From: an uncultured Planctomycetales bacterium
GTDB taxonomy: Bacteria; Omnitrophota; Gorgyraeia; Gygaellales; Profunditerraquicolaceae
Assembly: GCA_964487475.1 (NCBI GenBank)
Contig: CAZAPM010000005.1
Location: 62,001 to 124,135, forward strand
Direction: 5' to 3'
Length of the DNA stretch: 62,135 nt
The first letter of the stretch is position 1; each line of letters opens with the position of its first letter. Shown here in pieces: positions 1 to 62,135 of the stretch. The notes under the pieces were generated by a model. That model did not search any database. It saw only the letters and a list, made by a program, of their open reading frames with translations, and was not told the DNA's origin. Both the position numbers and the translations under genes were made by a program.

Positions 1-2
1 AT

Positions 3-278
3 TGCAATGACGATGATGATTGCGAGGATGCGCAGGATGATATTCGGGCATCCGGGAATACACTTTTGACAAATTCCACGGCTTTGCTTTCACAGGCGGA
101 GGAGAAGCTGGCGGCAGCGCAGGAATTGGAGTCGGAGATCGACACTGTTCGCGCCAGACTGAACGTTACGGCGTCGAATACCTCCTCAGGCGAAGAGGAA
201 GAACTGGTGTCAAGGATCGAAGATGCGCAGGAGTGGCGCAGACTTTTGGTCAACGGAACGGATATACTGGGGGATTGA
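3..278 (+). CDS. 3' part of a gene truncated by the window edge; acidic, helical/coiled-coil C-terminus; probably part of the Tad-like operon
   Basis: Frame is open from position 3 (CNDDDDCEDAQDDIRASG...LSQAEEKLAAAQELESEIDTVRARL...) to TGA at 276-278, 2 nt before the next ATG. Confidence 0.7.
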   Translation, partial: CNDDDDCEDAQDDIRASGNTLLTNSTALLSQAEEKLAAAQELESEIDTVRARLNVTASNTSSGEEEELVSRIEDAQEWRRLLVNGTDILGD

Positions 279-280
279 CG

Positions 281-1015
281 ATGAACGTGCGGACGGGGCG
301 ATATAGGGAGCGTGCCGAGAGAGGACAGGCATTCGCAGAGGTGGCGATCATGGCCAGCCTCATGCTGCTGGTATTCGGCGTCCTTATCGCCTACATCCAG
401 AGGTTCAATGACCAGCAATACGCGCAGATGACGGCGTTTCGCAATGCGCTCCGTCAAGCCTCCGTGTACGGGACGGATGAGGGATCGGGCGCAGGGGCAT
501 CGATCCAGTATACCCTTATCGAGAACCGCCGCCATGCGGATGTCTCCAGCGGTTTTCAAAAACGCAGCCCCCAGACCTTCAGCGCCAGCGCCAACGTGTT
601 CTGGGCGATCCCCGAGACGAATTCCAATGCCACCAGCCTTATCGGCTATAAGATAAACGAGGAAGAGTTCATCAAGGATTATGATACCCTTTCTTCCAAA
701 GCCGGAGAGGGAGAGAATTTCCAGACCGGTCAGATCATTACTTCTTCCGACGTGGAGTTCAACGAGACCATGGAGAAGACCGAAACCCCGCAGCAGATCC
801 GTACCGTGCAGAATTCCCGGCTGGAGGAGACGGTGACGACGGTAATTCCTTATGAGATCGTGACGAACGACACTGCGGAGGATGTGGTCAGTAGCGGGAC
901 TTTGATCAGCGTGACCCAGGGCTTATACCGGGACGCAGACGGCCAGTATAAATATCACAGTGATTCGGTGGGGACGGTAGTGGAAAGGGGGAGGTCATGG
1001 ACCACTTCCTTCTGA
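281..1015 (+). CDS. TadE/Flp-type prepilin-like (pseudopilin) protein
   Basis: ATG 281 follows a GGGGG SD-like run. N-terminus MNVRTGRYRERAERG|QAFAEVAIMASLMLLVFGVLIAY has a basic leader, G|Q cleavage site, Glu at +5 and a hydrophobic helix. Confidence 0.75.
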   Translation: MNVRTGRYRERAERGQAFAEVAIMASLMLLVFGVLIAYIQRFNDQQYAQMTAFRNALRQASVYGTDEGSGAGASIQYTLIENRRHADVSSGFQKRSPQTFSASANVFWAIPETNSNATSLIGYKINEEEFIKDYDTLSSKAGEGENFQTGQIITSSDVEFNETMEKTETPQQIRTVQNSRLEETVTTVIPYEIVTNDTAEDVVSSGTLISVTQGLYRDADGQYKYHSDSVGTVVERGRSWTTSF

Positions 1016-1290
1016 TGCCCTATCCACGCGCGCGCAAAGGGCAGAGCCTCCTGGAGTCTCTGATGGCATTGATCGTAGGGATCATCCTTTTGGGCGGGAT
1101 CGTGCAGATTTGGGTCTGGGGCAATACCCAGATCGTGAACCGGCAGCGGGAGTACGAGCGGACCAGGGTGACCGCGGGGGTGTCGGGCGATTATAATTCT
1201 TACAACAGCGCCTGGCCTCCGAATAGAGGGACTTTGGATAGTCTTACGGAAGAGGAAGTGCTGGTTGATTTTCCCGGAGGAGGCAAGTAA
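997..1290 (+). CDS. Small TadE/Flp-type prepilin-like protein (alternative start at 1015 via TGATG overlap)
   Basis: RARKG|QSLLESLMALIVGIILLGGIVQIWVWG: class III signal with G|QxxxE and one TM helix. Confidence 0.75.
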   Translation: MDHFLLMPYPRARKGQSLLESLMALIVGIILLGGIVQIWVWGNTQIVNRQREYERTRVTAGVSGDYNSYNSAWPPNRGTLDSLTEEEVLVDFPGGGK

Positions 1291-1292
1291 CC

Positions 1293-2978
1293 ATGTTCAC
1301 CTTCTTTCATCTTCGCAAGCTGCAGTATGAGAAGGGCCAGGTGCTGCCCTTTTTCATCATGTTCGTGGCGCTCCTGGTGATCATGGCTATGGTCAGCGTC
1401 AACTTAGGGAAGGTGGCGTTCATCAAGACTGACGCGTCCAACGGCGCGGATGCCGGCGCTATTGCCGCCGGCTCGATGATGGCGAATTATTTTAACTCTG
1501 CCGCCAAGGCCAACGAAGAGATGCAGGTGGCCTGGCAGGAATTCTACATTTCCCTGGCCATCGAGACCGGGATCGCTCTCGCTGCCGCGATCGCCGCATA
1601 TGCGATTGTGTCGCAGACGGTAATCACTTCGGCTGCATCCAAATCCGTTGCCCCGAACTCCCCCATTACTGCATACGTGATCGGAGTGAAGGATTGCGCG
1701 TTGACCGGTAAAGCACTGGTGCTTTTGGAGACCTTGGCGACCACCATATGGGGTATGATCATCGCCGTTACCGCGTTCCATGTGGCGCAACTCTATTACT
1801 ATAAGTCTATCCGTAAGATGTTGCGGGAAGGTCGGGAGGTTTCGATTAAAACCGGTCATCAGTTCGTGTTTTTGAACAGTGGGATCGGATCGAAGTTGAC
1901 GGAAGAACAAAGAGATACGCTCGATAGCTTTATGGATGGGCTGGAACATGAGGCGTCTTATACCTTTGACTGGCGGGATGGGCAGGACAGGGATCATGCG
2001 GTGACTTCTCGAATTAGTATTGGAGAGGTGGATGATTTTGAGTTAAAGGTATGCGTGTTGCCTTTGGCAGCTGAGTTGGGGGTGCTGGGTGCGGCCCTGG
2101 TGATCGCCTATATGGCGAAGACTTTCGTCAGCGAATCCCTCAAGGCATATTGCATCCAAAAGCTTCCTTACGCTCCGGATCAGGTGTGCAAGGAATGCTG
2201 TGAAAAAGGCGGTTGGGCAGCGATTGTCTGTTGCCCGTGTCATGTGGTATTGTTGGCGCTGGGCATCGCGGGAGATGTGCTCGGCAACATTTCCGACATG
2301 TATACCATTTCCGGGATGACCCCCGTATTTTACCTGCTTCCCACGGCTCTTGCTGGGGCCGCGCCGGCCTATACGGTGGATGACAGCTGGGCTTCGAATG
2401 GTTTTACTTTCATCATTTGCTGGATCGATGACGTCGATCACGACCGGCTCGCCCGGGCAGAGGCCTGGCAGTCCCATGGCGGGGCGGACCTGGGGTTATG
2501 GCAGACCGGATATCCGAACCGCGCTTCGCAGGGAGGCACGATATACAGCTATGGCGTGTCGAAGTTCGACGGCGGCTCCATCGGTGATTTCGAATTTACC
2601 TTTGATGCGCAGCTGGTGGAAACGGATAACAGGCCAGGGGAATACGATCCTTGTCCCTTTGCCGTAGCCAGAGTCAGGCAGCTAGAGCAGCAGATCCAGG
2701 AGCTCGGGGAAGCGGGGGGCGATTATTTGTCGAACCGTGCCGAAGGCTTAGGAGAGCAAGCGGATCATTTGAGCCAGGCCGTGGGTGGCAGTAACGTTAC
2801 CACCGTACCTGACTCCGTCAACAGCACTTCTGGCTCAAAGACCGGGCTGATCACGGACCTTAACGAAGGTTCGGATGATTTGAATACTACGGTGCAGTAT
2901 AATTCCGAAACCGCCGAGGCTAAACAGGAGAAGATCGACAATATCAAGAGCGCGTATCCCCATTGTGCTTATAATTAA
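1293..2978 (+). CDS. TadG-like pilus assembly protein (Tad N-terminal domain) with extra hydrophobic helices, a Cys cluster and a C-terminal coiled coil
   Basis: SD GGAGG upstream. KG|QVLPFFIMFVALLVIMAMVSVNLG...ASNGADAGAIAAG matches the Tad/TadG N-terminal pattern (GQ, TM, then NAADAAALAGA-like). Contains CKECCEKGGWAAIVCCPCH. Confidence 0.75.
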   Translation: MFTFFHLRKLQYEKGQVLPFFIMFVALLVIMAMVSVNLGKVAFIKTDASNGADAGAIAAGSMMANYFNSAAKANEEMQVAWQEFYISLAIETGIALAAAIAAYAIVSQTVITSAASKSVAPNSPITAYVIGVKDCALTGKALVLLETLATTIWGMIIAVTAFHVAQLYYYKSIRKMLREGREVSIKTGHQFVFLNSGIGSKLTEEQRDTLDSFMDGLEHEASYTFDWRDGQDRDHAVTSRISIGEVDDFELKVCVLPLAAELGVLGAALVIAYMAKTFVSESLKAYCIQKLPYAPDQVCKECCEKGGWAAIVCCPCHVVLLALGIAGDVLGNISDMYTISGMTPVFYLLPTALAGAAPAYTVDDSWASNGFTFIICWIDDVDHDRLARAEAWQSHGGADLGLWQTGYPNRASQGGTIYSYGVSKFDGGSIGDFEFTFDAQLVETDNRPGEYDPCPFAVARVRQLEQQIQELGEAGGDYLSNRAEGLGEQADHLSQAVGGSNVTTVPDSVNSTSGSKTGLITDLNEGSDDLNTTVQYNSETAEAKQEKIDNIKSAYPHCAYN

Positions 2979-2993: not shown

Positions 2994-3923
2994 ATGTTGG
3001 ATGTAATGGGACGAAAAGCGGTGATGTGTGTCGGGGCATTTCTGGTAAGCTCGAACCTGGTGGCGTATGCGTTCGCGCAGACCGTGCAGCCTCCTGCCGG
3101 CAGCGAGAGGATAAAGGAACAGGAGCGGATGATGGTTGGCGCGCCTATGCGCATGTTTTACTACAAGACGTCCCGGGATAAGAATTCGGTGTTGCAGTAT
3201 TACCGTTCGCAGCTGCAGAAACAGGGTTGGAAGGAATTCCGGCCGATGGATGTGCTCAAAGAGCTTCCGCTTCCTGAGAGCGTGGATTTGAAGATAGACG
3301 AATCAATGGTTACTTTCGCGGATCAGAACGTGATGTTCTCCAAGGGAGAGGAAATGGTAGTGCTTAATTTTCTGCCCGGGGAGTTTACCAAGGACAAAAA
3401 GACGTATTTCACGATCGCCGAGGGGGCGCCTTTGAGCGACGAAGCTCAGGCGAAGGTTGCTGCCGGCGGAGACGTGTACGTTCCCGAGTTGTTGGCGACG
3501 CCGAAGGAAATGCCGATCGCGGAGTATCCTTCAGCCAAGTTGATCTCGCTGCAGGAGAGTCCGTTGCTTTCTACCGCAGTGTATCATACGCAGGATGCTC
3601 CTCAAGGAGTGTTGGATTATTACCGGGAAAAAGCACAGGCGGAGGGGTGGACACTGTTGGAAGACGTTCCCATGCACGAGGTGTCCCAGGGTACGCTTCC
3701 CGAAGGGGTCGCAGGGGAAGATTGTCCTTCTTGCTCCCATGCGCAGACGCTTCAAGCGGTCGCGCAGTCAAAGATGCAGATGGAGCTCGGAGAGCTGGTA
3801 TATACGAATTCGCGCAAACAGCAGTTACGGATCGGGGTATCGGCTGTGGAATCTAATGCCCAGGGGCTTCCTTCTCCCCTGAAGTTTACAACCGTGGTGG
3901 TGGTTTATGGCCAGGAAAAATAA
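2994..3923 (+). CDS. Exported hypothetical protein with two internally related domains
   Basis: SD AAGGAG. Signal peptide ending AYAFA|Q. Duplicated motif VLQYYRSQLQKQGWKE / VLDYYREKAQAEGWTL. Contains CPSC. Confidence 0.7.
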   Translation: MLDVMGRKAVMCVGAFLVSSNLVAYAFAQTVQPPAGSERIKEQERMMVGAPMRMFYYKTSRDKNSVLQYYRSQLQKQGWKEFRPMDVLKELPLPESVDLKIDESMVTFADQNVMFSKGEEMVVLNFLPGEFTKDKKTYFTIAEGAPLSDEAQAKVAAGGDVYVPELLATPKEMPIAEYPSAKLISLQESPLLSTAVYHTQDAPQGVLDYYREKAQAEGWTLLEDVPMHEVSQGTLPEGVAGEDCPSCSHAQTLQAVAQSKMQMELGELVYTNSRKQQLRIGVSAVESNAQGLPSPLKFTTVVVVYGQEK

Positions 3924-4542
3924 GGCTCAGACTTTTGTCGAGTATGCGATGCTCATCGGCGTGCTCGTCGCAGTGATGGTGGGCATGCGGGTGTATTTCA
4001 CCCGTTCCGTGCAGGCGAAGTATCGCGTGGCCGGGGATTCGTTCGCTGCAGGCGAGCAGTTCGAGCCGGGGGTGACGGTGGTCGAGAACCTGGATGTGGC
4101 CAATCCTCTTCCTGGAGCGGTAACGGTGGAAAGGGGCGATCCCGCGAAGATCCTGGCCGAGAAGATCGCGGACCTGAGATACGAACTGTACGAAAAACCT
4201 TATGAGGATTTAAATATCTATGAGCTTACCGAAGCAGAACGCACTATGATCGGGCTTTCTGCGGATTCAGGCAGCGAGGATGTGTTTGGGTTGGTCGGCT
4301 ACCGTGATGTGTTGCGTGTGAGGGCTTCCGAGGTTGATACGTTGGCGGAGTATCTGAAGACCAGCCTGGAGGCGGCAACGCCGGAAGGCCGGTCGGGAAC
4401 CTTGACGGAGAACATCGAGCAGTTGAGGAAGTCGGCCGATAATCTTCGGCTTCAGGCGACGGATACGCACGCAGAGATCGTGAGGAAAGAAGCGGAACTC
4501 GCGGAACTCGAGCGGCAGTTGAGCGCGTTGGCCGGTCAATAG
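3907..4542 (+). CDS. Flp-like prepilin with a long coiled-coil C-terminal extension
   Basis: MARKNKA|QTFVEYAMLIGVLVAVMVGMRVYF carries the Flp-type EY motif at +5/+6. Overlaps the previous gene by 17 nt. Confidence 0.75.
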   Translation: MARKNKAQTFVEYAMLIGVLVAVMVGMRVYFTRSVQAKYRVAGDSFAAGEQFEPGVTVVENLDVANPLPGAVTVERGDPAKILAEKIADLRYELYEKPYEDLNIYELTEAERTMIGLSADSGSEDVFGLVGYRDVLRVRASEVDTLAEYLKTSLEAATPEGRSGTLTENIEQLRKSADNLRLQATDTHAEIVRKEAELAELERQLSALAGQ

Positions 4543-4570: not shown

Positions 4571-7500
4571 ATGCGTTACACAGGGACAGACAGGTTGAGG
4601 GGAAAGCTCCTGAGGACGGGTCTGTCTTTTGTGTTTTTGGGCAGCATGCTTTTTGCCGATGTTCCCGATGCCTTGGCGTATCGCAGTAGCGCCGGGGGGG
4701 GCGACCATGCGGAAGTGGACTGGGGAGAGATCGGCATGAGCGCAGGTATCAGCATCGGCGGCGCGGTGCTCGGCGCCGTAGCCGGGAGTGCTTGGTCGTC
4801 TGCAAAGGGCGCGACGGATGCCACCACCAAGATTGGCAGGACCGCGCAGACCGTGGGGAACCTGTTTACGAGCACGGATCATATCTCGAAGGGTTTTACT
4901 TCGATGCTGAAGTACGAAAAGATATTCAGTACCGTGGCCAAGGGCTATACCGCTTATATGGCGACTACACAGGTCAGCCGGGCACTGGGAGCTGCGGGAG
5001 CGTATTACGGCTGGGAAGCCGATGATACCTACCTTTTTACCTCTATTGCCAATGCCGGTGTAACGGGTTTTCTTAATCCTTCTGCGTCTTTGGGGGATGC
5101 CGGATCAGTGGCTTCGACGGATTTCACCAATCGGATGGCTGGGATGCTGGTAGGCGGCGCCAGCGGTGCGGCTTCCGGAGCTACCATTATAGGTATTGAT
5201 GGGGATAAGATCAGAAAAGGAGAAAACCCTGGTATTGGCGCGCAGATCGCGGGGACTGCATCGGGAATTGCCGCTACGGAGATTGGTAGGGCAATCGTAG
5301 ATCCCAGCACCTATAAGATCACCGAGCAAAAATACGAGATTAAGACCAAGCCTGTGCTTCAGCCGGACGGCACCTTCCGTGATGTGGAGTATGTGTATCG
5401 CGCCGGGGAATCCACTCCTCTGATGGATCGCGCCCATTACGCGGACCAGACCGGGGTTACCGCCACCAATAAAAATCTGGATTATATGGGCGCCAGTTTA
5501 GGAGCGGGTGTTTTGGACGAAGGGGCAACTGCCCGCGTGGTGACCAGCGACGGTTCTGCCGGCGCGGTGCTACGGACCGGTTTAAGCGACACACAGCTTC
5601 TCATTCAGGATCATACTTTCCCGGGAGATTCCGCGAAGACTTTTTATGGGCCTAACATGGAGCTTTCCTATGGCGGGGATGTTTCTTTGGTCAAGCCCAC
5701 GTTCGGGCAGGTGCTGGGTCGTATCACAGTCGGGGCGTTGAAGAATACTCTTGACCAGTGGCCGACCGTCGCCGGAACCGCCGCCGCATTATACGCCACC
5801 GAAGATATGGATCCTAATTGGAAACCCCTGGTCTATACGGTTGTGTCATCGACCACCTCGCCGATACTCGACAGCGCGGCTACCGTTTGGAGGCTTAAGC
5901 CTTCCTTGTGGGGCACCAAGGACAGCAATCTTGATACCATGCTGGGTAAGAGGCCTGCGCTTATGGAGCAGCGGCAAATGATGGCTGACCGGGCACTTCG
6001 CGTCAAGATCAGCCGGGAACTGAAAGACCTCGATCTTTCCGATACGGTTAACGTGGGGGACCTGAAAAAGAAGCTGTCTGATCTTGAACCGACGAGCCGG
6101 GATAAAATACAGAAAATGTCCGATTCCGAGATCCTCGCGCTTGCAGCCTCAAAGCACCTTTTTAGCGCCGATGCCTTGATCCCGCAGACATTCAAGGGAA
6201 TGTTCTCCGCCTCTGAGAAAAACGAGATATTGAGTAATTTTATCGGGAGGATGGGGAGCGCGGCAACTGTGGGCGATGCCTTCAACGACAAGGTGGCGAA
6301 AGAGAACATATATGATTCCCTTACGGGGGTTTTCTCTCGCCGAAAGGCGGATGGCGGCGTACAGAGCTGGGATCTCTATAAAGAGGCTGGAGGAACACGT
6401 CTGGGAGTTTTTGGTATCGCCGGTGAGAATATCCTGAGATACGATCTGCCCGTGGCCACCCTGTCCGGGTTGATCAATGTCGGATTTAACCATGCGTTGA
6501 TCGCGGCGGGAGCGGATAAGGACGTGATGGATACGCAGGTAGGTACCTTGATGGGGCTTACCGCTGCGAGCATTGCCAGGGGCACGGTCGGATGGGCGTA
6601 TAAGAATTACCTTGATAAAAGGGAGCTGAAATCGATTCAGGGCGGCCAGTATGATCAGATGGTTACCTCTACGCTGAATTACCGGGATCCCGCGGAAATC
6701 GTCATCGCCCGTTTCGAGGGCGACCTGCCCATGCCTCAAAAAACAATTCTCACCAGCTCGGTGTATAAAGATGATAAGGGCGTTGAGCTTGGAGAAAAGG
6801 ACATCCAGGAGCGCTTTAACAGGGCACAACAGGAGCTGAAGGGATACGGTATCAATATTCCCAATGAAGAGATCGATCTGAGCAAGACGGATGTGGAAAG
6901 CGCGCGCCTTAAGGTCGTTTCATATGTTAACGCGTATAACCGTAATCTAGAGCTTCTTAAAAAAGCGCCTGGCACGGGAGAGAGCGGTGACAGCATGCTG
7001 GTTCCTTTGAAGAACGAGTTTGTGGAAGGCGCCAATGTAAAGCCTTTGGATATGGCTACGGCGAGCGCTCTCCTGGCCCCGCTGCAGAATGTCATAGAGC
7101 TCAATACCATCAGGCCGGCAGCGGAGGGGGAGGCAGGGCCCATTCATATATATGCACAGAATTCGGCCTTTGCGAATGTTGATTATGTCGTGAGCCATAT
7201 GGACCAGGACGGTAAAGTGATCAGCACGCGGCGGGTGGATAATCTCGGGGAGCGTGGGCTTTCAATGTCCGATACGCTTTTTACGGTAAAGGACGGAAAA
7301 CTTGCCGAGCAAAAATATTTCATGCTTAATGGTGTGCCGGTGGATCAACAGAATGTCCGTGTGGATGTGGTATCTGAGAGGGTTCCTCTTTCTGCGGCGA
7401 TCTTCGGAAATTTACAACAGGGTATCTTTGAGATGGGTTGGCAGACCCTGGCAATGGGGCTTCCTGCAACAAAGGGCGGGAAAATGAGCTCATATGCCTG

Positions 7501-7936: not shown

Positions 7937-7964
7937 GTCCAATCTGCATTATTTGTCCAATCTG
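7937..7964. repeat. Direct repeat GTCCAATCTG x2 (18-bp period) immediately after the stop codon
   Basis: gtccaatctg at 7937 and 7955; a related pair lies at 10349/10369. Confidence 0.7.
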
Positions 7965-7996
7965 AGCGTTTTTGTTCTGAAAGCGCTCTCTTTTTC
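7964..7996 (+). terminator. Intrinsic terminator of the Tad-like operon
   Basis: Stem GAGCGTTTT / AAAGCGCTC with a 7-nt loop, followed by TCTTTTT. Confidence 0.6.
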
Positions 7997-8009: not shown

Positions 8010-8038
8010 TTGAAACGATATGATAAATCGGTCATAGT
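8010..8038 (+). promoter_or_regulatory. Putative sigma70 promoter upstream of riboswitch 1
   Basis: TTGAAA-N17-CATAGT ending just before the aptamer. Confidence 0.4.
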
Positions 8039-8042
8039 TTAA

Positions 8043-8180: not shown

Positions 8181-8190
8181 GAGGTGCCCC

Positions 8191-52800: not shown

Positions 52801-55800
52801 CGATATTCTGCCGGGCAAGACCGCGGCTGAATCCCTGGAGATCGCGGTCCGCGCATGGAACAGCCGGCTGCTTAAGACCAGCGGTATCGTCGTGCATGCC
52901 AGGCTGTTGGCGCCGGTGCCGGCGTTCAGCATCAGCGTTGCCGGCGTACTGGTCCAGGAGAAGGTCGAATTCCCGGCCGTAGCTGCCGAGCGTAGTGCCA
53001 AGATCGATGTTAAGGTCGAAGAGATCATGACCAAGATCGACCCGGCGTTGGCTGAGGCGAAGAAGCAGGGCGCCCAGAAGGTAGCCAATGCCGACAGGGA
53101 TTTTGAGATCATCGTGGCTGAGAAAGAAGCGGCTTCCCCGGCTCCCGCGCTGCCTGCGGTGTGCGCAGATTTCAATACCGGCGCGTTCACCAACGATACT
53201 GCCGTGGTCGTGCTCAAGAACGGCGAGTTCGGCGGGTTGGATTTCAATGTGCGCACCATGGTGCTGGATCAGCTGGCGCTGGATTATAAGATCGCGATCG
53301 GTTCCAGAAGGGCTTTAACCCCCGCGGAAGTGCTGCGCATCTGGGGACATACCGGTATCAGGATGAGGCTGGTCAGGCTTCTGGCGGAGATCGAGCAGAA
53401 CGCCGAGCTTAAGGCGGAAGTTGAGAAGGCTCTGGCGCTGGCGGCGGATGAGAAGGGCGTTGAATTCGGCCAGTGGATCGATGCGCAGGCGAAGATCACC
53501 AAGGATAAGGCGCATCCTTTTGTCTTGAGCGAGAGCAGCCATTTCAGGGCCCTGGTCTTCCTGTGGGATCTGAGCTCCAAAGAGGTTCAGGTCGTGCTGT
53601 TGCAGAGGGTAAGCAGCAGGCAGCAGGTGGCGGCCCGTTACGGCCTGCCGGCGGCTGCGGTTGCGGGGTCCGAGCAGAACCTGGTGGACCTGATCGTGGG
53701 CGAAGCGGATAATCCGGCGGCCGGAACCCTGCGCGCCATGGTCAAAGAGGAGCTCGCTGCCGGATCCCTGCAGTACGTGATGAAGGTGGCGGATAACCAG
53801 GGCGTGCCGCAGAGAGCTGCCTATGCCGCGGCTAACGCCATCCACTCGCCTACGTTTGAAGAGCTTGCTTCCCGCGAATGGGATATCTGGAAGGCGGAGA
53901 TTTCCGTGCTGCTGGGCCAGTTTACCCGGCCGTATACGCCTCTGGCGCCTCCGGCAAGAACTGTCGAGACCCGTTCCCTCAATGATGCCTACCGTATGTT
54001 CGTTCCCGTGACCTACAGAACGCCTCAGCAGATCGCCGATGAATTGACCCAGGCTGCGGGTACCATGTCCGCAAACGCTTCTCTCCAGGAAAGATTCGCG
54101 CTTGAAAGAAGGTTAGCCTGTTTCGTCGCTTCCATGAATGAGGCGTATGCCGCCACCGGCGCCTATACCTATTATCATGCGCTGGTTGCGATCAGTCACT
54201 ATCAGGCAGTGGTCTCCCAGTGGATCCCGCAGGATGGGGTCAACCTTTACATCGCCCGTGACGCTGCCAACTTCTGGATGGCCGGCCAGATGATGGCGCA
54301 GGATAAGGCGGCGTTCGAAGCTAATAATGTGGTGTTCCATCTCTCCCGCGAGCGCATGGGCAATGCGCACAAAGCCATGGAGATCATCCTGGATACGGTC
54401 AGGGCGGAATCGGTGTCTACTCCTGTCGAGTTCTGGACCGCGCTGCTGAAGCATTTCACCGCCAGGATGAATGAGGATGCGGAGTTTGCGGCGAAGGTTG
54501 CCGAGACGTATGCCAGGGTCAAGCCGTATCTGACAGGCGGAAAGCTGCGTATCGTGGAGAGCATGGCGGAAGGTATGATCACTACTTTCATCAAGGCGGC
54601 TGTGCTGGTCAATGAGCCTGCTGCGGCGGTTGAAGAGTGTATTGCCGCTCCTAAGTCGGTTCGCGAGTCGAAGCTGCGCGGTGCAAGGATCTTCGATTGG
54701 CTCGGAGCGACCAGGGAAGAGATCGCGAGGTTCCTCGAAGATGCCTTCCAGAAGAATGGTTTGAAGGCGCCGGCGAAGATCGATACCACTCCGGCGGAAG
54801 AGGCGGAGGAGAGAGAGGTAAAGCAAGCTTTCGATCGTAACCAGCTTAAGGTATGGGCACTTGAAGCGCAGGCGTATGAACTCCAGTATCCTTTCTCTGA
54901 AGTCAACCTTGGTCATCCGGTGGAGTTCTCGGAGGGCAAGGTGTTGGTATCTTCTCCTGCCAAGCAGCTTGGTTTTGCGCTGCGCCAGATGCTGTTAGCG
55001 AATGCAATCGCGGATAGGGCTGGAGAAATTGGCGCTGTGGCGCTGGCAGCGGCTGTTCCTGTGGTGACTGTGGATGAGTATTTCGCGGGAACCAATATCC
55101 ATATGACTGATGCGCAGAAGGCCGCATTCGAGGATCTCCTGGCACGTCATAACGAAGTTTTGATGACGATCGGCGATGCCAAGCATGCCGAGGCATTTGC
55201 CAGGATCTTGGAGTGGATGCAAATGATGGGCGATGCAGCAATGGCACAGGTGTTAGCGGTAGATAAGGCCGAGCCGCGTTTCGCTTTTTACCTGGAAAGA
55301 ATGTTTTTTGTTCTTCGTGATATGTCTTCCCATGATGATTTCATACGCAGGATTACTTGGTTGATGAATAGAGAAGGGGCGTTGTCGGCTGAATTCGCGA
55401 AGCTTAATAAGGGTAAGTTTGGGATTGAGGACCCCGTTCAGATATTACATCTGCTTGGGACAAAGATTGCAGTTGAAAAGCGAAAGCTTGCCCAAGAACG
55501 TCGAGGCATGGGATACGTTCGCAGTTCCTCAAAATCATATGGCGCCGACCTCCTGGGTGCGACTGCTCCGGGCGCGAAGAAAGAGCTGTTGGATTCGAGA
55601 GATTTCCTGAGCCTGATCCTGAAGGAAGCAGGGAAGCTTAATGGCAAATGTTTCTCCTTTGTGCCGATGTTCGGATTGGTTAAGCTTCATCCTTTGGTTG
55701 CGCTGATCGCCCTGCTTGTGGTTATCGCTGGGGTGGGGTATTACATTTGGAAAAAGACGAGCAATTTGAGAAAAACCTCAACGAAAAAAGTTCCGGTTGT

Positions 55801-58800
55801 TCTTCCTGTAGCTTCAACTGTTGAGGGATCAAGCCCGGCGGGACCTGTCAAAGAAAGGTTGAGCGATCATTTGGTCAGAGAGATATCTGAAAGATTGAGT
55901 CAGCCTTGTAGTGCTGAATTATTTAAGTGGTTGTTTGGTTTGCTTTCGTATTCTGAAGTGGTCCACGAGACAAAGACAGAAGAGCAGGATGACTATTTGT
56001 CTATGCCCGAAGGGATATATCCTTTTACTGTCAAAGAAAATGTAGATGTGACCATAGATTATGGCAGTATGGTTAGGGACGCCGCTTGGATTGCGTTGGC
56101 TAAGCTGACCGAGAACAAAGAGCACATTGGGGAGCTTCCTCCTAACTTTGGCAGTCTGATTCCGTCCGTCCATTCATTTAACACTCCCGCAGCGTTTACG
56201 TTCCTAAAGAATATCGGGGAGTTAGCCCGGCCGATGCTTAGAGTTATCATATCTGGAAATGTCGATACCTCTTGGAAGTATACAGCTTATGATTTGCTCA
56301 TTAAGTTGGGGAACGTTGATGAGGATTCGATAGCCGCTATTCTTTCGCTGAAGGTTGCTGTTCAGGCAGAATGGGGAGTAGGCTCTGAATCGTTACAGAA
56401 TGAGTTGGTTGCTTTTGGGGCAAGGTGTGTTCCCATCGTTGAGCCCCTTCTGAAGTCCAATGGTGGGGCAAGAAAAGCAGCGTTTGATGTGCTTAGCAGG
56501 GTTGGTGGGTTAACAGGGGAGCATAGGGTTGCGAAATATACTGCTGACATTGAAGATGTAATAAACGGTATCTCTGGGGCGGCCGAGGTTTTGAGCGCGG
56601 AATTTGCCGCTCCCGAAATAAGAGGTCTCTTGAATGAGAGGGCTGAAAGAATATGGATTGCCGCAAAGGCTGGTAATTCCGGTGCAAGGAATTTGTTAGT
56701 TCATGTATCCGATGCGGTCGTTCCTTTGATTGAGAAAGAGCTTGAATCTGAAGATGGGCAAAAAAGACAGGTGGCACTTGATGCATTAACGATGTTAGGC
56801 GATTTGACTCCGGAAAGAGCGCGCAAAGCGCATGTCGCCGGCCTCAAAGTTCAGATACGTGGAGTTGATGCACAGCAACGAATTGCGGCACTAAATGAGC
56901 TGAATAGTTTGGGTGAAATTTCACCTGCGCTTATTGCGGCAAAGCAGGCACGCGATATAGCAGAGGCTGCTCATTCAGACGTTGCTCTGGATCAGGTGCT
57001 TGCGGTGCAGCCGATGGGTGATGCGCAGTTAAAGAGGCTTACCGAGTTGCTCTTAGATGATTCGCAGGAGAGACAAAGAAGGATTAGGATATTTGAGCAC
57101 CTGATGCAGCATAAAGCAATCGTTAATTATACCATAAAATGCTTATCGATTAGATATGCAGAAGGCGATCTTTTGTCCGCATATTTTATTCATAAATCTG
57201 GAACGCAATTTATCAATACTGTATTATTTGATTATCAGCAAGGCCGGTTTTCTCGTTCGACGTATCTGAATCGGAGGAGTTTTAGGTGGGAACCAATCTC
57301 TGATTCGCAGGTTCTTGAGATGTTGGTGATGATGGGTCTGATGGCTTCAGATGTGGAATCAGCAATAAGGGTATTGTTAGGAAGAAGAGAGCTTGATAAG
57401 GCAATAGCACTTTCTAGGGCGGTTAATGTAGATATCCGTAGAGAATTGATCGAAATATATTTATCGTTGAACCGCTTTGACGAAGCGATAGCGCTTTCAA
57501 AGGAGATTAATGTTGACTTGCGCCCCGAGCTATCTAGGATTTTGATTCAGATAATTGTAAATAGCTGGAAAAACGTTGGCTTAAATGTTGATATCCAAAC
57601 AGTAACACATACGCCTTCGTTTGATACCACGGCATTTCATTATCCGGGGGTCTGTATATCAATTGAAGAAGAGGAGGAGTTGTGTAAGCCCTGGGATACT
57701 ACTTCAGATGTAAATGATGGATTGAGAAAAGAGGCAAGAAAGAATATATTGGATGCCATTGAATTATATAAAAAATATGGCCTGGATTTGGCTCCGGTAA
57801 TAACAATGATGAGGAATTCGTTAGCTTCAGAGAATAAATTCCATGCTGAATTTGGGCAGCAAGTGTTGAGTCTGATCGATAAAGATGAAAAACAAGGTCC
57901 TATCGTAAAGCAGGTTGTAAAGGGGAGCCTTTATTATGAAGATGAGCTTAAGAACACAAAGGGTGAGCCTGTTAAGCTTGAGGATAAGCAAACACTGATT
58001 GTTGAGTTGAGGGGAGGCAAGGATAACTCGTTCTCGGTTTTCACTATGCCTAAGAATGATGGGGATAAAAAGAAGGCACGTTTTGCCGCTATCCAGGCTG
58101 CGCTGAAGGCGGTTATGGATAAGCTTACCGATGAATCTACCCCGAATCCGCTTTCTAAGGGGGTTGCAGCCGGTGTTAAGGTCAGGGTTGTAACGAACGC
58201 CAAGCGTACGGCTTTTGTCGAGCAGGGAGTGATCGTGCTTGACGAAATACTTTTTCAGAATCAGGCGTTGCTGCTTATGGAGTTTGAGCATGAGCTTCGT
58301 CATATTATCCAGGGTACGGTCGTATATCGCGCACCTCCGACCCTCGAAGAGCTCTCCGTTATCGCTAAGGAAGTTGAAAGATTTGTTTCTCTCCCTGATG
58401 CAGAACAGGAAAGTGTTCTGACCTTCCTCAAAAATACCTCCGGACTTGATTCAAAGCATTTTTCTGCGATTCTCGAAGCCGCCCAGGCGATCAAGAAAGC
58501 GGATGAAGATAATAAGCCGTCCCTGAAAGAACAGTTCTTTGCGGAGCTTATCGCTTATGTGAGATCCGCTTATCCGAACCACTCCGTTTTCTTTGCGGGC
58601 AAGTCGGCCACGGAAATTAAGGTTGAGCTGGCTTCTTGGGAGAATCCCATCCTGATGTACGTCACGGCAAGGTTTGCGACCAGGGATATTCAGTCTCCCA
58701 TCGGACACGTCGCTACCAAGACCTGGTTTGAGGCCTGGCAGGCGATGGTAGACGCTAAAGTCGAGGCTACCGGATTGATCCGCCGCGTTCCTTCGGGCAC

Positions 58801-61800
58801 CGGTTCGATGTCGGTAAAAGGATCGAGAAACTTCGCGCTTACCTATTTAATGGAGGGTATGCCGGTCGAGGTTTTGGAAGCCAAGATGAAGGATATCCTG
58901 ACCGACGTCAAGAAGGCTTTCGAGGATGCCAATCCCGAAGTCACTCTGGAAATGAACCTCGTGCATCTGCCGCTTCCGCAGACCGAAGCGGAAGTAAGGC
59001 AGGTCTATGAGTCCCTGCCGTTCGCCCAATTGAAGCCTGCGATGTACGTAGGATCTGTGGTGCCTGGGGTAGCGATCGACAAGTGTGAGTACCCAGTGGT
59101 TTTTGACGAGAAAGACTGCCCTATTGATCGAAGAGCAATTCCCGATGCAAAGAAAAAGAATATCGTGGCTTATCTTGATCTTGCTTCTGCGAAATTTGGT
59201 ATTCCGTATGTGCTAGTCGAGCGTAAAGGCGCAATCGCATTCATGAATAGGGGCACCGGAGTGGTTGAGATCGATATAGGGCTTGCAGCAAATGCGCCTG
59301 CGTTTAAGTCTAGATCAAAATCAAAGACTCTTAGTGCATCGTACGCATTCCGGGTTTTAGTTGAAGATATTTTCCGACATGCTAGGGCATATGAGCGTGG
59401 TGATGATGAGCATTCAATCTGGGAACAGAGCGCAGAACACTATAAGAACAATGTCGATGAGTTCTTCGCTATCACTGAGGCTTTGACCGGCGGGGCATAT
59501 GGTCTTATTAAGGACGCGAAATTCGGGTTTACGGCCATAAATACTGGGAAAAAAGATCCGAATGTTGTGGCTGATGGCGCTGCAGCAACGTATCTTACTC
59601 TCTTGAGAATAACTGTTTCATTGCGTCGTTTTCAAGAGGTTCAGAATAAGATTATCGAGAAATATAAAGGTAACCCTCGGAAGCAGCAGAAAAAGATACA
59701 TAAGTATATGCGGAGGTTCAATTGGCTGAGAGGTCGTGATCCTAAGAAATCACCTGAATCCCAAAAAGCTTTCAATCCTCAGTGGCCAGATGCATTCAAA
59801 TATCCCGTCCAGTCTCAGTGGCTGATGACAGTGGATGAGTTTAAGAGGGTTGTCGAGTATTATGTCGGCGCACGCGGTAATATGCTCGAGCTCGCCAATA
59901 GGCTGTCCGTTACAAGAGCACATAATGCTGTAGTGTATGCCAAGGTTAGGAGCATGTTTGCGAAGGTCATACTGTTGCATAAGAAGCTTCTTGCTGTACA
60001 CAAGCGAAGTGACCTTATCGCGAAGATTTCCAAGAAGATCAATGCGGTTAAAAGAGGCAACCTTAGCGCTTCTATTAATGCAGTTCATGAGTCAGTGATA
60101 TTTGACCTGCGTGCGTTGAGGGATGCAGTGGGAGACGAGGGTGCAGTTGAAGCAGAGCTTTATACCCTTATTGGCGGTAAGAGAAGCAATGATCCTGCCA
60201 AGAAGGAATTTGATCCGAATTGTCTGATTCATGTAATAAAAGAAGAAATGAAGCATTTCAAGTTCGCCGTGATCGTGGGTATGCGTTCGGAAAAGGGCCG
60301 CATATGCCCCATGTCTTCGGAAGATCCGTTCGGCGAGGACTCCTTGTATGCGAAGGTCCGTCAGCACGAAGAGCTTTGTGAGGGTACCGGTATTACCTGG
60401 GAGTTGATCTTGGATACCCAGAACTCCCCGGATAAGAGCGACGAGATCGTTAAAACGCTGTGCAAGGAAGATCGTATGAAGGAGTACTACGAGAACAAAC
60501 AGATCGTGGTGCTTACCATTTCCGAACCCGGGCCTACCATGGGTAAGGGCGGCAAGGTGACTTATGGTATGAATTATGCGGTTTCTTCAAGCGATGAGCA
60601 TCCGGTGCCTGCCGAGATCGTATTCTACACCGATGCCGACACCGCAGTCGATATGAGACACTCGGGCCTGCTCATGGGTGCTATGGCGCGCGCTTCGATC
60701 GTGAGGGCGCTTGTTGCCCACTTGCTTCCTAAGAAAGACAATGTGTTGCTTCCCGGCCCTATAAATGATTTCGTTGATAATCTCACTTTTGATGATTTGG
60801 AGGCTGATTTAGAGGCGATTTGTAATGAGTATCATATTGCGCAGCCTTGGTTCCGCATTGTCTTTTTTGACCCCAAAGGCAATCTTTACAAGAGTTTCTC
60901 TGATGCAAAGGTAAAACAGAAATTTGAAGGAGCTAAACAGGCGTTTGAAAGAATCAAGCAAGAGCCTGGGCAAACTGAGCAGGCGATCGAAAAAGCCAAA
61001 AGGGAGTTTGAAAAAGCTAAGCAGGAATTTGAAAATGCCAAAGCCGGTCTAAAGAACGCTATCGCAAATCATATTAACATGATTTCTATGTACTATGAAA
61101 GTTGCGAAAAGCTCATCGATGATTTCGTTAAGGATAATGCAGTAAAAATTTCGCTTTCGGCTTTACTGAAGACCGAGCCTGATATGAGTAATATCGTTAC
61201 TTTTGGTTCACGTTTCCCTGCATCCCTCGGCATCAACGGTTTCGCTATGCCCGGGCTTGATACATCGCCCGTTGCTGAAGAGAACGTGGTCAACCAGGCC
61301 GGCAAGGCGGTTAATCAGCAGTATCTTTTCCGTGAGGTCAGCTTCGAGGCTAGGGTCAAGGAGACCCAGTGTGGGTTCAAGGCGTATCCTCGCAAGATTG
61401 CTGCCGCGATCATGCCTATGATGCAGGATACCACCTTTTCCTTCGACACCGAGATGTTCAATCTGGCGTACCATGCGGGTGCGCAGTTCCGCGAGGTCGG
61501 AATCTTCTGGTCGGATTCCGCGGCTGATGCGTCCGGTACCAGCACCACCGAGCGCTGGAACATGTTCAAGGCGTGGATCGGACAGTATAAGAGATTCGCC
61601 AAGGTGCGCGGGTTCAAGACCATGCATGATGAGGATCTGGCGAAGCTCGAGCTGGCAGTGGATAAGGGCCTGGCCATGGCGCGCGCAAAAGAGAATACTC
61701 TGGACGTTGCCCGCGATATCGTGGAGTGGGGCAAGGGCCTGCCGAGCGCCGAGGTTACCTATAAGAATAGCTTCCTGGGCATCGATCCCCGCAAGGGAAC

Positions 61801-62135
61801 GAGCAAGGTGAATATCGACACCAAGGTTTCGGTGTGCCGTACCACCGCGGGTGAAGTGATCTTAAGCGCTGCGGAGCACCTGAAGTCCCGCCGCGAAGCG
61901 GCATTGGCGTCCCTGCAGGACCGTGAATCCTTCATGCTCGGGACCGATGCGCCGGTGGCTGCTCCTAAGGCGGCTAAGGTAAGCGTTGAGGCCCGCCAGC
62001 AGAACGTTGCATTGGTCTCCAGGGTCACCGGCCGCACCGTTTCGACAGCCGAAGAAGCAGCCGCGGCATATATCGCGTATCTGCGTTGGGCAGCGGGCGC
62101 GAACGCTGGTGCGCTGACCTTCACCCCCGAAGAGG
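10875..62135 (+). CDS. Giant multidomain protein (about 17,000 aa or more, 3'-truncated, interrupted by three assembly gaps)
   Basis: No stop from 10875 to the gap at 33746. After that gap, protein-like sequence resumes at 33848 (APAVAPAP...KFDNDLYNAENAL) and is still in the same frame at 62102-62134. The ORF track lists no terminated long + ORF there, consistent with an open frame. The track's stop at 33977 results from the arbitrary 100-N gap length. Continuity across the gaps is inferred. Confidence 0.75.
11340..11807 (+). other. C39-family cysteine peptidase domain ending in a double-glycine-like motif
   Basis: PCGTKAL (Cys162), FIAHLDGDHYVLVTKV (His251), VYFTD (Asp267), FLERFSGFAL, then ETIGDAAAKTVLGA|F. 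Confidence 0.75.
13542..15709 (+). repeat. Long internal protein repeats of about 310-320 aa (2 full + 1 partial)
   Basis: Units start GMLSLTYLNKPFV (13542), GMLSLTFLSNPHV (14496) and GMLIESFFKAPMV (15420). Shared motifs FD(K/R)VAxY, TxFQSTEA, PI(M/L)PEG, DSDTLVSYGV/GSDTLVAYGV. Confidence 0.8.
15710..15809. other. Assembly gap (100 N)
   Basis: Run of exactly 100 N. Confidence 0.99.
16720..17990 (+). repeat. About 7 tandem beta-rich repeats of ~62 aa (186-bp period in the core)
   Basis: Consensus GKVTLTPxxEYxVTFDExGxSHIAAGTRFKGSDGLVYxVGAxEMFEVVGGS; copies at 17292, 17478 and 17664. Confidence 0.9.
19440..23090 (+). other. About 1,200-aa Gly/Ala-rich region with many hydrophobic helices (membrane-inserting-like)
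   Basis: Repeated small-residue helices such as VGIGAAVGLGVKG, AVGTGVGALA, AVAAGTGFALASGALMLG. Confidence 0.55.
26390..26760 (+). other. GHKL/HATPase_c domain resembling RsbT/RsbW anti-sigma kinases
   Basis: N box VINELWSNVYKYG, G1 box VRVKDKGPGF, G2 box GTPGMGY. Confidence 0.7.
27801..27931 (+). promoter_or_regulatory. Two long RNA hairpins forming a structured leader inside the giant ORF
   Basis: Hairpin 1: GAGCCGCA..GCTCTTCCT / AGGAA..AGAGC..TGCGGCTT (27801-27855). Hairpin 2: GTTGTAAA-T-GGGCGCTCC-GCAGAAGT / ACTTCTGC-C-GGGGCGCCC-TTTACAAC (27858-27931). The SD follows immediately. Confidence 0.65.
27947..28225 (+). CDS. Nested 92-aa hypothetical protein in an alternative frame within the giant ORF
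   Basis: SD AAAGGAG 7 nt before ATG. Host-like codons (ttc, atc, ggc, ctg, cgc). Globular-looking product MCTIKFEELEFDHMVEFIKDSTVFLSGRE..., while the giant frame here reads as Ser/Ala-rich linker. Confidence 0.65.
   Translation: MCTIKFEELEFDHMVEFIKDSTVFLSGRESGSGKVRLFLIHEDTGNVYTRNGRVDSWEELEGNFRDAVVSRLYAFRDRIPVYRVNGTHEVHA
28770..29090 (+). other. Phosphodiester glycosidase (NAGPA-like) domain, divergent
   Basis: GPMAIVNGK...NFLGITREGYVVLIKTEG...GMDIAKKALALGVVEGAFIDGGAT, compared with the family pattern GP.L..G / AIGI..DG / LGA..A.NLDGGGS. Confidence 0.6.
29463..30000 (+). other. LysM + L,D-transpeptidase (YkuD) domains
   Basis: YKIAEGDTLGKIARKFNTT...N...IIAGRTLEIP; VGTG...TPAGDF; catalytic FH-x12-SHGCIRM (His 29877, Cys 29925). 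Confidence 0.9.
30430..31110 (+). other. Lysozyme/lytic-transglycosylase-like domain with an inserted LysM-like domain
   Basis: LMATAIQESDL...GMWQV (ES and GxxQ motifs); HTIKKGDSLESVTREY...ILTPGAKMKV; ends ...WYENYN. Confidence 0.55.
31373..31472. other. Assembly gap (100 N)
   Basis: Run of exactly 100 N. Confidence 0.99.
33420..33742 (+). other. M23 (LytM-like) metallopeptidase domain
   Basis: FGAR...HQGVD (HxxxD), GTPVYAV, YGNVVMIEH, YAH, VARGQ, GRSGN, MLHFEIR. Confidence 0.9.
33746..33845. other. Assembly gap (100 N) causing an apparent frameshift in the giant ORF
   Basis: Run of exactly 100 N; the coding frame differs on either side. Confidence 0.99.
33848..62134 (+). CDS. Gap-free distal segment of the giant ORF (9,429 codons, absent from the ORF track)
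   Basis: Frame checked at many points (34721, 35006, 44969, 47459, 48362, 50768, 58289, 60632, 62102), all congruent mod 3. Strong GC3 bias in this frame produces the long antisense shadow ORFs. Confidence 0.9.
34367..35170 (+). other. Clan-A glycoside hydrolase TIM barrel (GH2/GH5-like)
   Basis: VLVNGKPFY, NAVRTY, FELGNEYN (acid/base Glu 34727), VDMVGINSY, PMYFAEHGA (nucleophile Glu 35006), FMSFED...WG. Confidence 0.75.
38150..39700 (+). other. Long coiled-coil stalk
   Basis: Heptad-rich segments such as NLAAAQQNLTRAEGRIAEEIAKE and AKLSSAQQGVASAQANVTSATRGLNNL. Confidence 0.6.
39840..40730 (+). other. Outer-membrane beta-barrel-like region
   Basis: Consecutive amphipathic strands with aromatic ends: FFVQLSGGAQF, YTSFAFG, WKWDVFVRPEY, YPYVGAEGQVKV, TSVGARAMY, VEVHYGMNW, YGMTFGPVASF. 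Confidence 0.45.
44900..45240 (+). other. HExxH zinc-metalloprotease-like module, copy 1
   Basis: ITLDRRLL..LLGLELTHEINH...EEVAIILAEVRSFLNL (His 44969). Confidence 0.55.
45790..49715 (+). other. Polytopic FKS1/callose-synthase (GT48)-like glucan synthase domain
   Basis: TM bundle, cytosolic domain, TM bundle. Collinear motifs: VEYSE, WEQFVED, FWMNHRCQTVYKTI, GK, YDAD, YVFMKD, GEDVF, GH, SED, LGHGAE, KWAAG. Confidence 0.7.
50750..51370 (+). other. CCA-adding/poly(A) polymerase-like nucleotidyltransferase head domain, preceded by HEAT-like repeats
   Basis: PFGGTLRDWVL...GDIDVLV (GGxxRD...DxD); EGTKEDLENKVL. Confidence 0.65.
51400..51610 (+). repeat. 33-bp tandem repeat encoding the linker (AKAGTGAAPQA)n
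   Basis: About 4 near-perfect plus 2 degenerate copies, e.g. gccggtacgggtgccgctccgcaggcggcgaaa. Confidence 0.85.
52400..52950 (+). other. Degenerate GGDEF-like domain
   Basis: FYLAFADIDDMTLYHEAFGKH (compare LLxxDIDxFKxINDxxGH); KWMEDESFILI in place of RxGGDEFxI; later FSISVAGV. Confidence 0.55.
58200..58600 (+). other. HExxH zinc-metalloprotease-like module, copy 2
   Basis: IVLDEILF..LLLMEFEHELRH...EELSVIAKEVERFVSL (His 58289); aligns with copy 1. Confidence 0.55.
60251..61600 (+). other. GT2 glycosyltransferase of the dolichyl-phosphate glucosyltransferase type, split by an insertion
   Basis: WELIL..NSPDKS, GKGG, FYTDAD, FGSR, ETQCGFK, FSFDTE, REVGIFW. Confidence 0.8.

Follow-up and report, generated by a model that had tools for sequence, protein, structure and literature searches.

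A Tad pilus and giant-gene locus of an Omnitrophota bacterium with c-di-GMP-type riboswitches and a single predicted self-cleavage site

The DNA analyzed here, referred to as the window, comprises the final 62,135 bases of a contig (CAZAPM010000005.1, hereafter C5) from the 1.87-Mb genome of an uncultured Omnitrophota bacterium (GCA_964487475.1; 36 contigs, 94.6% complete). It carries the 3' end of a Tad pilus locus, a gene for a secreted protein of 718 amino acids (aa), and the 5' part of a giant gene that runs off the contig end, with all of the long genes on the + strand. Our principal proposal, which we judge to be slightly on the probable side, is that the flp pilin genes, the 718-aa gene, and the giant gene are each located behind a class-I cyclic di-GMP (c-di-GMP) riboswitch, the latter two being predicted ON switches, and that the giant protein would be cut once, by its own C39 peptidase domain, directly after residue 311. 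Positions refer to the window unless preceded by a contig name, and the features of the window are collected in Table 1.

Riboswitches upstream of the pilin, 718-aa, and giant genes

A preliminary description of this DNA, made from its letters and translated open reading frames (ORFs), had placed one riboswitch before a short paralog of the giant and another before the giant itself. Both are now supported by matches above the Rfam gathering scores (RS1 and RS2; Table 1), and a third c-di-GMP-I riboswitch (C5:57811-57910, 44.8 bits) lies 54 nucleotides (nt) upstream of a gene for a 63-aa Flp pilin. Our own covariance model was built from 22 aptamers. In all of these, a G precedes the GC/GU-AAAC element, CAAAG is unchanged, and the 3' end has GCC. 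Among 81 aptamers in an alignment that was fitted to the model, 98.1% of cells were paired and compensatory changes occurred in 12 of 20 pairs, with none of 500 shuffles scoring as high. The CAAAG element retains its A in all 22 aptamers where the RF03167 consensus has G. We take the ligand contacts to be G20, A47, and C92 of Vc2, and by this numbering the conserved G, A, and C would fall at these sites, a pattern that points to c-di-GMP rather than cyclic GMP-AMP (cGAMP) as far as G20 and A47 are concerned.

Both RS1 and RS2 are followed by a hairpin and a run of U, and in both the 5' arm of this terminator is formed by the 3' strand of the aptamer itself. With ligand bound, this strand would be unavailable and the terminator could not form. 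The design is thus of the ON type, and transcription past either aptamer is predicted to require bound c-di-GMP. The same type of overlap as in RS2 was found in 63 of the 67 riboswitch-bearing relatives. Since a promoter match stands before each aptamer and a terminator-like hairpin follows the 1121-aa gene upstream of RS1, the 718-aa gene and the giant look like separate transcription units. The converse arrangement, with the riboswitches acting as OFF switches or sensing another cyclic dinucleotide, such that the locus would be silenced at high c-di-GMP, strikes us as very unlikely. Class-I OFF switches for c-di-GMP do exist, namely Cd1 and zmpI of C. difficile (PMC6366702), and most of the relatives' riboswitches score best with the RF03167 variant model, for which neither a description nor a ligand was found in the literature examined. 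However, the ON-type strand overlap in the window and among the relatives argues against OFF control, and the A kept where the variant consensus has G argues against another ligand.

Three of the seven c-di-GMP-I riboswitches of the genome are those described above. The other four are located at C10:28347-28428 (+), C2:21485-21562 (-), C19:12544-12623 (+), and C6:21240-21372 (-); the C6 copy precedes a GH1 glycosidase (E 1e-85), and the C10, C2, and C19 copies precede small ORFs of no known family.

Conservation of the locus was assessed in relatives found by scanning species-representative genomes, which yielded 173 confirmed relatives, 80 of them kept. Nearly all of their records bear the title Candidatus Omnitrophota or Omnitrophica, and some automated records say Planctomycetales. 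In a set of 60 relatives' genomes, 36 of them from the same family, the first 600 residues of the giant match heads in 29 (20 of the 36). These heads stand at the start of open frames, the longest of 68,606 aa, and Rfam places a riboswitch of the same clan upstream of the head on the same strand in 17 of these 29 genome-set loci. By our own model, a riboswitch ends no more than 600 nt, and mostly 200-270 nt, before the head match in 67 of 80 loci. Linkage to Tad genes was counted on the 45 loci whose upstream DNA exceeds 9 kb; in 41 of these, Tad homologs precede the head on the same strand (TadB/C in 37, pilin-like genes in 34). The preliminary description had named in advance, as a result that would tell against it, the lack of any such conserved linkage of Tad genes, riboswitches, and giants; by the riboswitch and Tad counts, the linkage is conserved.

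The C39 head and the predicted cut site

The giant has an N-terminal signal-anchor or extended signal peptide followed by a domain of the C39 fold, which PF03412 matches at residues 209-294 (E 4.9e-8, 33.3 bits, cut-off 22; model positions 46-132). All 22 aligned heads share this architecture, i.e. a hydrophobic segment with a conserved A-x-A end and then a domain with invariant Cys162 and His251. The head profile matches the double-glycine-motif protease 6mpz in the PDB, with the His region aligned to that of 6mpz. An AlphaFold2 (AF2) model of the head has a predicted local distance difference test score (pLDDT) of 75.4 overall and 77-95 in the core, and the best Foldseek matches to this model are again 6mpz (TM-score 0.71, 137 of 141 residues, E 4e-6), along with PCAT1, ComA, and C39-like domains. 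An ABC exporter context was looked for and no ABC domain was found with the C39 domain, which follows the signal-anchor instead.

Directly behind this domain, 73 of the 80 relatives have the motif [LIV][ST]xxE[AS][KMQ]xx[LMK]G[AS], which we take to follow the double-glycine leader pattern at positions -12, -8, -4, -2, and -1. With a weight matrix made from the motifs of 72 relatives, a scan of 52,240 aa, the sum of this genome's stop-free giant pieces (see below), yielded a single site of at least 12 bits, at residues 300-311 (19.1 bits; maximum of 20 shuffles, 11.0 bits), and it is right behind this motif that order gives way to disorder in the AF2 model of the head.

The short paralog led by RS1, another claim of the preliminary description that stands, speaks to the same position. 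Over 272 aa, the 718-aa protein shares 61% identity with residues 311-580 of the giant, and the similarity begins right after its predicted signal-peptidase site, between A-I-A and F-D, and in the giant right after the motif, between G-A and F-D. By this comparison the 718-aa paralog may serve as a natural control for the predicted cut site. The module common to the two proteins was modeled as beta-rich by AF2 (pLDDT 78.9, predicted TM-score 0.78), its first 20 residues being disordered, and it has only 7 matches among 1.84 billion representative proteins. A search of 5.8 billion proteins for homologs of the 718-aa protein with lengths of 393-1252 aa returned none but itself, and the ESM Atlas gave no usable match. 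Among the relatives, no separate short paralog was found, its homologs occurring only inside giants, just behind the head.

It could also be that no self-cleavage takes place, the C39 head acting on other proteins or serving to dock, with the motif as its structural tail and the giant as one membrane-anchored coat protein. We hold this to be rather doubtful, even though several features agree with it: protease-inactive C39-like domains are known and 3zua and HlyB are among the fold matches, the motif packs against the domain with a pLDDT of ~93, and a Trp is found six residues before the Cys. 'Other protein substrates' are likewise named as an alternative by West-Roberts et al. (10.1101/2023.11.21.568195). 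On the other hand, the Cys and His are invariant in all 22 heads, and the paralog replaces both head and motif with a plain signal peptide at exactly the point in question. The fit of the tail to what we presume to be the double-glycine leader pattern, seen in 73 of 80 relatives, likewise argues for cleavage.

The giant reading frame and its likely continuation

The preliminary description's giant ORF is confirmed: the frame that opens at 10875 continues to the window's end for 16,984 codons, in which base composition predicts ~676 stops and there are 0. It consists of four stretches of 1611, 5187, 757, and 9429 codons, split by three runs of 100 N, and the frame is unchanged over gaps 1 and 2 and shifted at gap 3. 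That the scaffold might be chimeric across these gaps was a stated concern, and it has been removed for two of them. Public contigs bridge gap 1 with 1 nt (52 nt in one run), which together with the two leftover bases preserves the frame, and the flanks of this gap are adjacent and colinear in three relatives; the contigs that bridge gap 3 supply 158 nt, and since 2+158+2 nt make 54 codons, the apparent frame shift is explained and the frame is restored. We therefore reject an assembly artefact or chimera for gaps 1 and 3, whereas gap 2 is without a bridge. Colinearity over gap 2 in relatives was uninformative, as the LysM-YkuD and M23 parts on either side match mostly small housekeeping genes.

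As an observation in its own right, the contig that bridges gap 1 in one of the runs differs from the window at 16 places and has a 12-nt in-frame insertion just past the gap (15842-15905). Together with the unequal gap lengths, this constitutes strain-level length variation within the giant gene.

On four other contigs of the genome, a single open frame takes up all or much of the length: C15 (16,838 aa), C22 (5,655 aa), C23 (4,959 aa), and the end of C16 (26954-50365; 7,804 aa). With the window, these stop-free pieces sum to 52,240 aa. Set against the mark of more than 30,000 aa in a single gene for giants of the West-Roberts type, the window contributes 16,984 codons and the other stop-free pieces lie apart from it. 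The genome holds one giant head and one tail, and a gene with two PilZ domains is located directly behind the C16 tail. Because there is a single head and a single tail with a PilZ gene behind it, as in the giants of West-Roberts et al. (10.1101/2023.11.21.568195), the frames of C5, C15, C22, C23, and C16 are probably one gene of ~52,240 aa or more, although we infer the join.

Domains of the giant body and the predicted extent of cleavage

The giant was searched with Pfam, first as its four stretches and again as 74 overlapping 450-aa pieces (E<=0.01), and with NCBIfam. Of the domains that the preliminary description had listed for the giant, the protease, LysM, YkuD, and M23 are confirmed by Pfam (the protease as Peptidase_C39), which adds NAGPA and a weak HEAT_2 match; a weak EnvC-like coiled coil was the sole addition from NCBIfam. 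In contrast, the HATPase, nucleotidyltransferase, GGDEF, glycosyltransferase (GT), and glycoside hydrolase (GH) domains listed alongside them were found in the window by neither database, and the window's giant has neither a match to PF00990 in six frames nor a GG[DE]EF motif. Domains of cytosolic type, HATPase_c and GT2 among them, sit on the other stop-free contigs. The C15, C22, C23, and C16 frames carry HATPase_c, GT2, GNAT, Asp/Glu racemase, AlaDh, SF1 helicase, and M50 (on C15), as well as NUDIX, HAD, PALP, VTC, GH65, alpha-amylase, ROK, PfkB, kinases, glucosamine isomerase, and others.

At a Kyte-Doolittle threshold of >=1.8, the window's giant contains 23 hydrophobic 19-mers. After the N-terminal segment, ~5,400 aa pass without a strongly hydrophobic 19-mer, then nine hydrophobic segments flank NAGPA, LysM-YkuD, and M23, and the next ~3,300 aa without such 19-mers are followed by a cluster of 12 and by one more. 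These segments, together with the signal-peptide-like ones before NAGPA and LysM, agree with the earlier statement that transmembrane and signal segments separate the domains. The LysM-YkuD part resembles small stand-alone genes found in nearly all relatives, which fits the view that whole secreted-enzyme genes have been absorbed into the giant with their signal peptides, as from its sequence it looks as if they were. A reading of the giant as a repeat adhesin was rejected, as there is almost no self-similarity. On its opposite strand, two ORFs without a Pfam match (34706-38158, 1150 aa; 38516-41929, 1137 aa) lie in the most GC-rich and A-skewed part of the giant and are probably by-products of composition.

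The preliminary description regarded the giant as a polyprotein cut by its own protease into many modules sent to different compartments, and of this the one cut behind the C39 domain is supported and the many are not. An active-looking C39 domain in the head, the Peptidase_M50 on C15, and the presence of cytosolic-type and extracytoplasmic domains in the same presumed gene are all compatible with a true polyprotein, as is the possibility that signal peptidase cuts at the Sec-like and Tat-like segments before NAGPA and LysM, and cleavage has been raised as a possibility by West-Roberts et al. (10.1101/2023.11.21.568195). We nonetheless consider a true polyprotein unlikely: the C39-type motif occurs once, not repeatedly, in 52,240 aa, M23 and YkuD act on peptidoglycan and not on the giant itself, the Tat-like pattern gains no significance when the search is relaxed (2 occurrences, against as many as 2 in shuffled sequence), and the cytosolic domains lie outside the window, to which their join is presumed. 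Because the motif is found only once, the C39 head by itself cannot account for a polyprotein of many pieces. There is a related scheme, reminiscent of viral polyproteins, to which we likewise assign a low probability. Here c-di-GMP would open all three riboswitches so that pilus, 718-aa protein, and giant would be made at the same time, a cut in cis by the head peptidase at its built-in double-glycine leader would free a body of >50,000 aa, and signal peptidase would then excise the envelope-active cassettes at their captured signal peptides, while the first module of the body would also be made as a free secreted 'scout' protein.

The Tad locus and neighboring genes

The remaining genes of the window bear out a prepilin operon, as had been claimed: four ORFs have Flp/TadE-like N-termini and another has a Tad domain (Table 1). 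Within the 20 kb upstream of the window, the + strand encodes a peptidyl-prolyl isomerase (PPIase), RcpC/CpaB, a secretin with TonB_C, a TadZ-like/TadA fusion, a DUF192 protein, and a 518-aa protein. The Tad machinery on this strand thus includes T2SSE fused to CbiA/ParA, two T2SSF proteins, RcpC, and the secretin, and the genes that follow the third riboswitch are, in order, the 63-aa Flp pilin, two further Flp-like genes, TadB, and TadC. The 63-aa pilin carries KKGQSTLEYIIIF, with the G/xxxxEY motif of Flp, of which the locus holds more copies. A dedicated prepilin peptidase (TadV/CpaA) was not found in the Tad locus, the genome's Peptidase_A24 matches being on C14 and C1 and none on C5. The C-terminal TonB_C domain of the Tad secretin (C5:51992-53626; E 1.3e-15) is an unusual fusion, and TonB C-terminal domains near giants are mentioned in 10.64898/2026.06.07.730766.

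Adjoining the Tad locus, and divergent from it on the minus strand (C5:44563-48267), are genes for a FIST protein and a histidine kinase, as well as one for a response regulator whose GGDEF domain is partial, covering profile positions 5-89 of 161. This cluster may be a local source or sensor of the c-di-GMP signal. A six-frame search of the whole genome with PF00990 yielded 7 GGDEF matches, and the genome also has 20 PilZ matches and no EAL matches.

Table 1. Genes, RNA elements, domains, and assembly gaps of the window (window positions).
Feature	Position	Strand	Remarks
391-aa Flp-like pilin gene, 3' end	3..278	+	Start at C5:61103; internal G-FSFAEY motif, then hydrophobic helix; homologs 5' of relatives' giant heads
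260-aa TadE/Flp-like pseudopilin	233..1015	+	GQAFAEV then hydrophobic helix; no Pfam match; homologs in relatives' loci
97-aa pseudopilin-like protein	997..1290	+	N-terminus KGQSLLESLMALIVG; homologs in many relatives' loci
561-aa TadG-like protein	1293..2978	+	PF13400 (Tad), E 5.2e-5, 23.9 bits, cut-off 22.3
309-aa protein, no known family	2994..3923	+	N-terminal signal-like segment; no Pfam match; weak homologs in relatives' loci
211-aa Flp-like pilin	3907..4542	+	N-terminus KAQTFVEYAMLIGVLVAV; homolog in most relatives' loci
1121-aa secreted protein, no known family	4571..7936	+	No Pfam match; homolog 5' of head in 9/45 loci with >9 kb upstream DNA
Terminator-like hairpin and T-run after 1121-aa gene	7964..7988	+	
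Sigma-70-like promoter match, 9/12	8010..8038	+	Ends 4 nt 5' of RS1; consensus match only
RS1, c-di-GMP-I-clan riboswitch aptamer	8042..8137	+	RF03167 59.7 bits, gathering cut-off 59; own covariance model 74.7 bits
RS1 expression platform	8122..8183	+	Hairpin (8122-8171) -22.3 kcal/mol; 5' arm is aptamer 3' strand; then 8 U
718-aa secreted protein	8191..10347	+	ATG 8191 behind GAGG (ORF 8179/8191-10347); signal peptide, then paralog of giant's first module
Sigma-70-like promoter, 11/12	10659..10688	+	TTGACA, 16 nt, TG-TATATT; ends ~5 nt 5' of RS2
RS2, c-di-GMP-I riboswitch aptamer	10693..10787	+	RF01051 66.4 bits, gathering cut-off 35; own covariance model 88.7 bits
RS2 expression platform	10773..10819	+	Hairpin (10773-10812) -17.5 kcal/mol; 5' arm is aptamer 3' strand; then 7 U
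Giant gene, 5' part	10875..62135	+	16,984 codons, 0 stops, runs off contig end
N-terminal signal-anchor or extended signal peptide	11037..11093	+	Conserved A-x-A end
C39-fold cysteine peptidase domain (Cys162, His251)	11199..11771	+	PF03412; model matches 6mpz
Double-glycine-leader-like motif, residues 300-311	11772..11807	+	Ends G-A; predicted cut after 11807
First body module, beta-rich	11808..12614	+	Common to giant and 718-aa protein; AF2
Gap 1	15710..15809	.	Bridged by public contigs, 3 runs from 2 studies; 1 nt (52 nt in one run); in frame
Internal Sec-signal-peptide-like segment	28209..28283	+	Ends A-Q-A; 5' of NAGPA
NAGPA (phosphodiester glycosidase)	28650..29066	+	PF09992, E 3.1e-8
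Internal Tat-like signal segment	29310..29378	+	RRGFLK then hydrophobic stretch; just 5' of LysM
LysM and YkuD (L,D-transpeptidase)	29466..29996	+	LysM 29466-29594, E 1.4e-15; YkuD 29649-29996, E 1.1e-14
Gap 2	31373..31472	.	Unbridged; contigs stop with loose ends on both sides
Peptidase_M23	33462..33737	+	E 4.9e-28
Gap 3	33746..33845	.	Bridged in 2 runs from 2 studies; 158 nt
Cluster of 12 strongly hydrophobic 19-mers	43748..49696	+	Candidate membrane helices

Discussion

Based upon these features, a sequence of events can be proposed for the locus. Firstly, c-di-GMP would be raised by GGDEF enzymes, such as the one encoded next to the Tad locus among the 7 of the genome. The ligand would hold the 3' strand of each aptamer, no terminator would form, and the pilins, the 718-aa protein, and the giant would be made together. 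Secondly, the N-terminus of the giant would be inserted by Sec, which would place the C39 domain outside the cytoplasm, where it would cleave after G310-A311 and free a body starting with F-D-E-I-S-S, an N-terminus of the sort that signal peptidase is expected to leave on the 718-aa paralog. The body, with its long initial part devoid of hydrophobic segments and its subsequent membrane-bounded, peptidoglycan-active cassettes (NAGPA, LysM-YkuD, and M23), would presumably act on a cell envelope, either the cell's own or that of prey. The body may be exported by the Tad/type II secretion system (T2SS)-like machine. The locus may also be induced on attachment, as the preliminary description proposed. 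This would fit both the predicted ON design and a passage of PMC10066038, according to which giant-ORF peptides increased 3-fold when V. archaeovorus cells were attached.

Several observations weigh against this proposal. With regard to the riboswitches, 13 of 80 loci lack one close to the head: it is 626-7356 nt away in 7, none was found in 4 despite at least 691 nt of upstream DNA, and 2 have too little upstream DNA. The flp riboswitch is rare as well, having been found, besides this genome, at 1 to 2 of the loci with homologs of the 63-aa Flp pilin (clearly at one, perhaps at a second). With regard to the protease, the third catalytic residue, at His+16, varies among D, N, and E, and six residues before the Cys there is an invariant Trp, not Gln; we take Asp/Asn and an oxyanion Gln, respectively, to be expected of C39 at these positions. 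At -8 the window's motif carries A in place of the E, D, or Q of 72 relatives, and its score of 19.1 bits compares with a median of 29.5 bits for the training set. The junction with the paralog is also a module boundary, which duplication of a whole domain would likewise produce. Lastly, a crude count gives an odd number of strict-threshold hydrophobic segments between C39 and NAGPA, so that any predicted topology is tentative; gap 2 is unbridged, and C5 is presumed to join C15, C22, C23, and C16.

Loci of this kind are already known, whereas a conserved riboswitch as their gate and a single predicted cut site seem not to have been reported. This window adds another riboswitch, the third, before the pilin genes; a separate secreted paralog that would mark the cut site; and a direct count showing that the C39 motif is unrepeated. 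The giants of Omnitrophota are among the largest predicted proteins, and a conserved riboswitch bears on when they are made, linking them, along with the neighboring pilus, to the attach-or-swim signal c-di-GMP. A single defined cut site with a natural control likewise sharpens the published idea that the giants may be cleaved.

The closest known systems are the Omnitrophota giants themselves. West-Roberts et al. 2023 (10.1101/2023.11.21.568195) describe giants with an N-terminal C39 domain near signal peptides, many membrane segments, and possible cleavage, preceded by a secretion/pilus locus with a PPIase and followed by PilZ genes; Tad loci along with giant ORFs are described by Seymour et al. 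2023 (PMC10066038); and a PF03412 cluster of giants with pilus flanks appears in 10.64898/2026.06.07.730766. The present giant is similarly stop-free, with few recognized domains (cell-wall-active ones among them), many hydrophobic segments, and a C39 domain near its N-terminal signal. It is likewise preceded by a locus with a secretin, an ATPase, platform proteins, RcpC, a PPIase, and small genes with class-III signals, and PilZ genes follow; cleavage of such giants, too, is a published proposal. It goes beyond the published accounts in having a riboswitch with an overlapping terminator before the gene and a predicted cut narrowed to one conserved site. Unlike most of the giants of West-Roberts et al., it gave no match to the divergent SecA DEAD domain (PF07517) in the pieces scanned, the gene being incomplete. 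The word 'riboswitch' is absent from the portions of text consulted of all three reports, preprint supplements aside, and, apart from one paper listing GGDEF domains in a giant, everything returned by a literature search for Omnitrophota with riboswitch or c-di-GMP was unrelated.

The regulatory logic has its nearest parallel in C. difficile, where c-di-GMP riboswitches control the pilA1 type IV pili, the adhesins CD2831 and CD3246, and the protease ZmpI (PMC6366702). In both organisms, riboswitches rather than protein receptors would tie c-di-GMP to a pilin operon, surface proteins, and a releasing protease, and the terminator-based ON design predicted here is that of the pilA1 switch. However, the ON switches of C. 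difficile belong to class II and its protease is encoded on its own behind an OFF switch, whereas all of those considered here are class I, the pilus is of the Tad/Flp type, and the protease is part of the giant itself.

With respect to the protease, the C39 domains of the AMS/PCAT ABC transporters (LahT 6mpz, PCAT1, and ComA) have the same fold and Cys/His pair. The motif shared with the relatives resembles the leaders of their substrates in its G-A end, its hydrophobic positions -4 and -12, and its acidic position -8. Unlike in these transporters, the present domain has no ABC transporter attached and is predicted to reside outside the cytoplasm behind a signal-anchor, and the 'leader' continues directly from the C-terminal end of the protease itself, such that cleavage in cis would release a cargo of >16,000 aa. 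Lastly, there is the Lap system of Pseudomonas fluorescens, in which the protease LapG stands apart and belongs to a different family, the receptor LapD and not an RNA mediates the effect of c-di-GMP, and export is of type I. There too, the retention or release of a very large surface protein, LapA, depends upon c-di-GMP and a periplasmic cysteine protease that cuts near the N-terminus.

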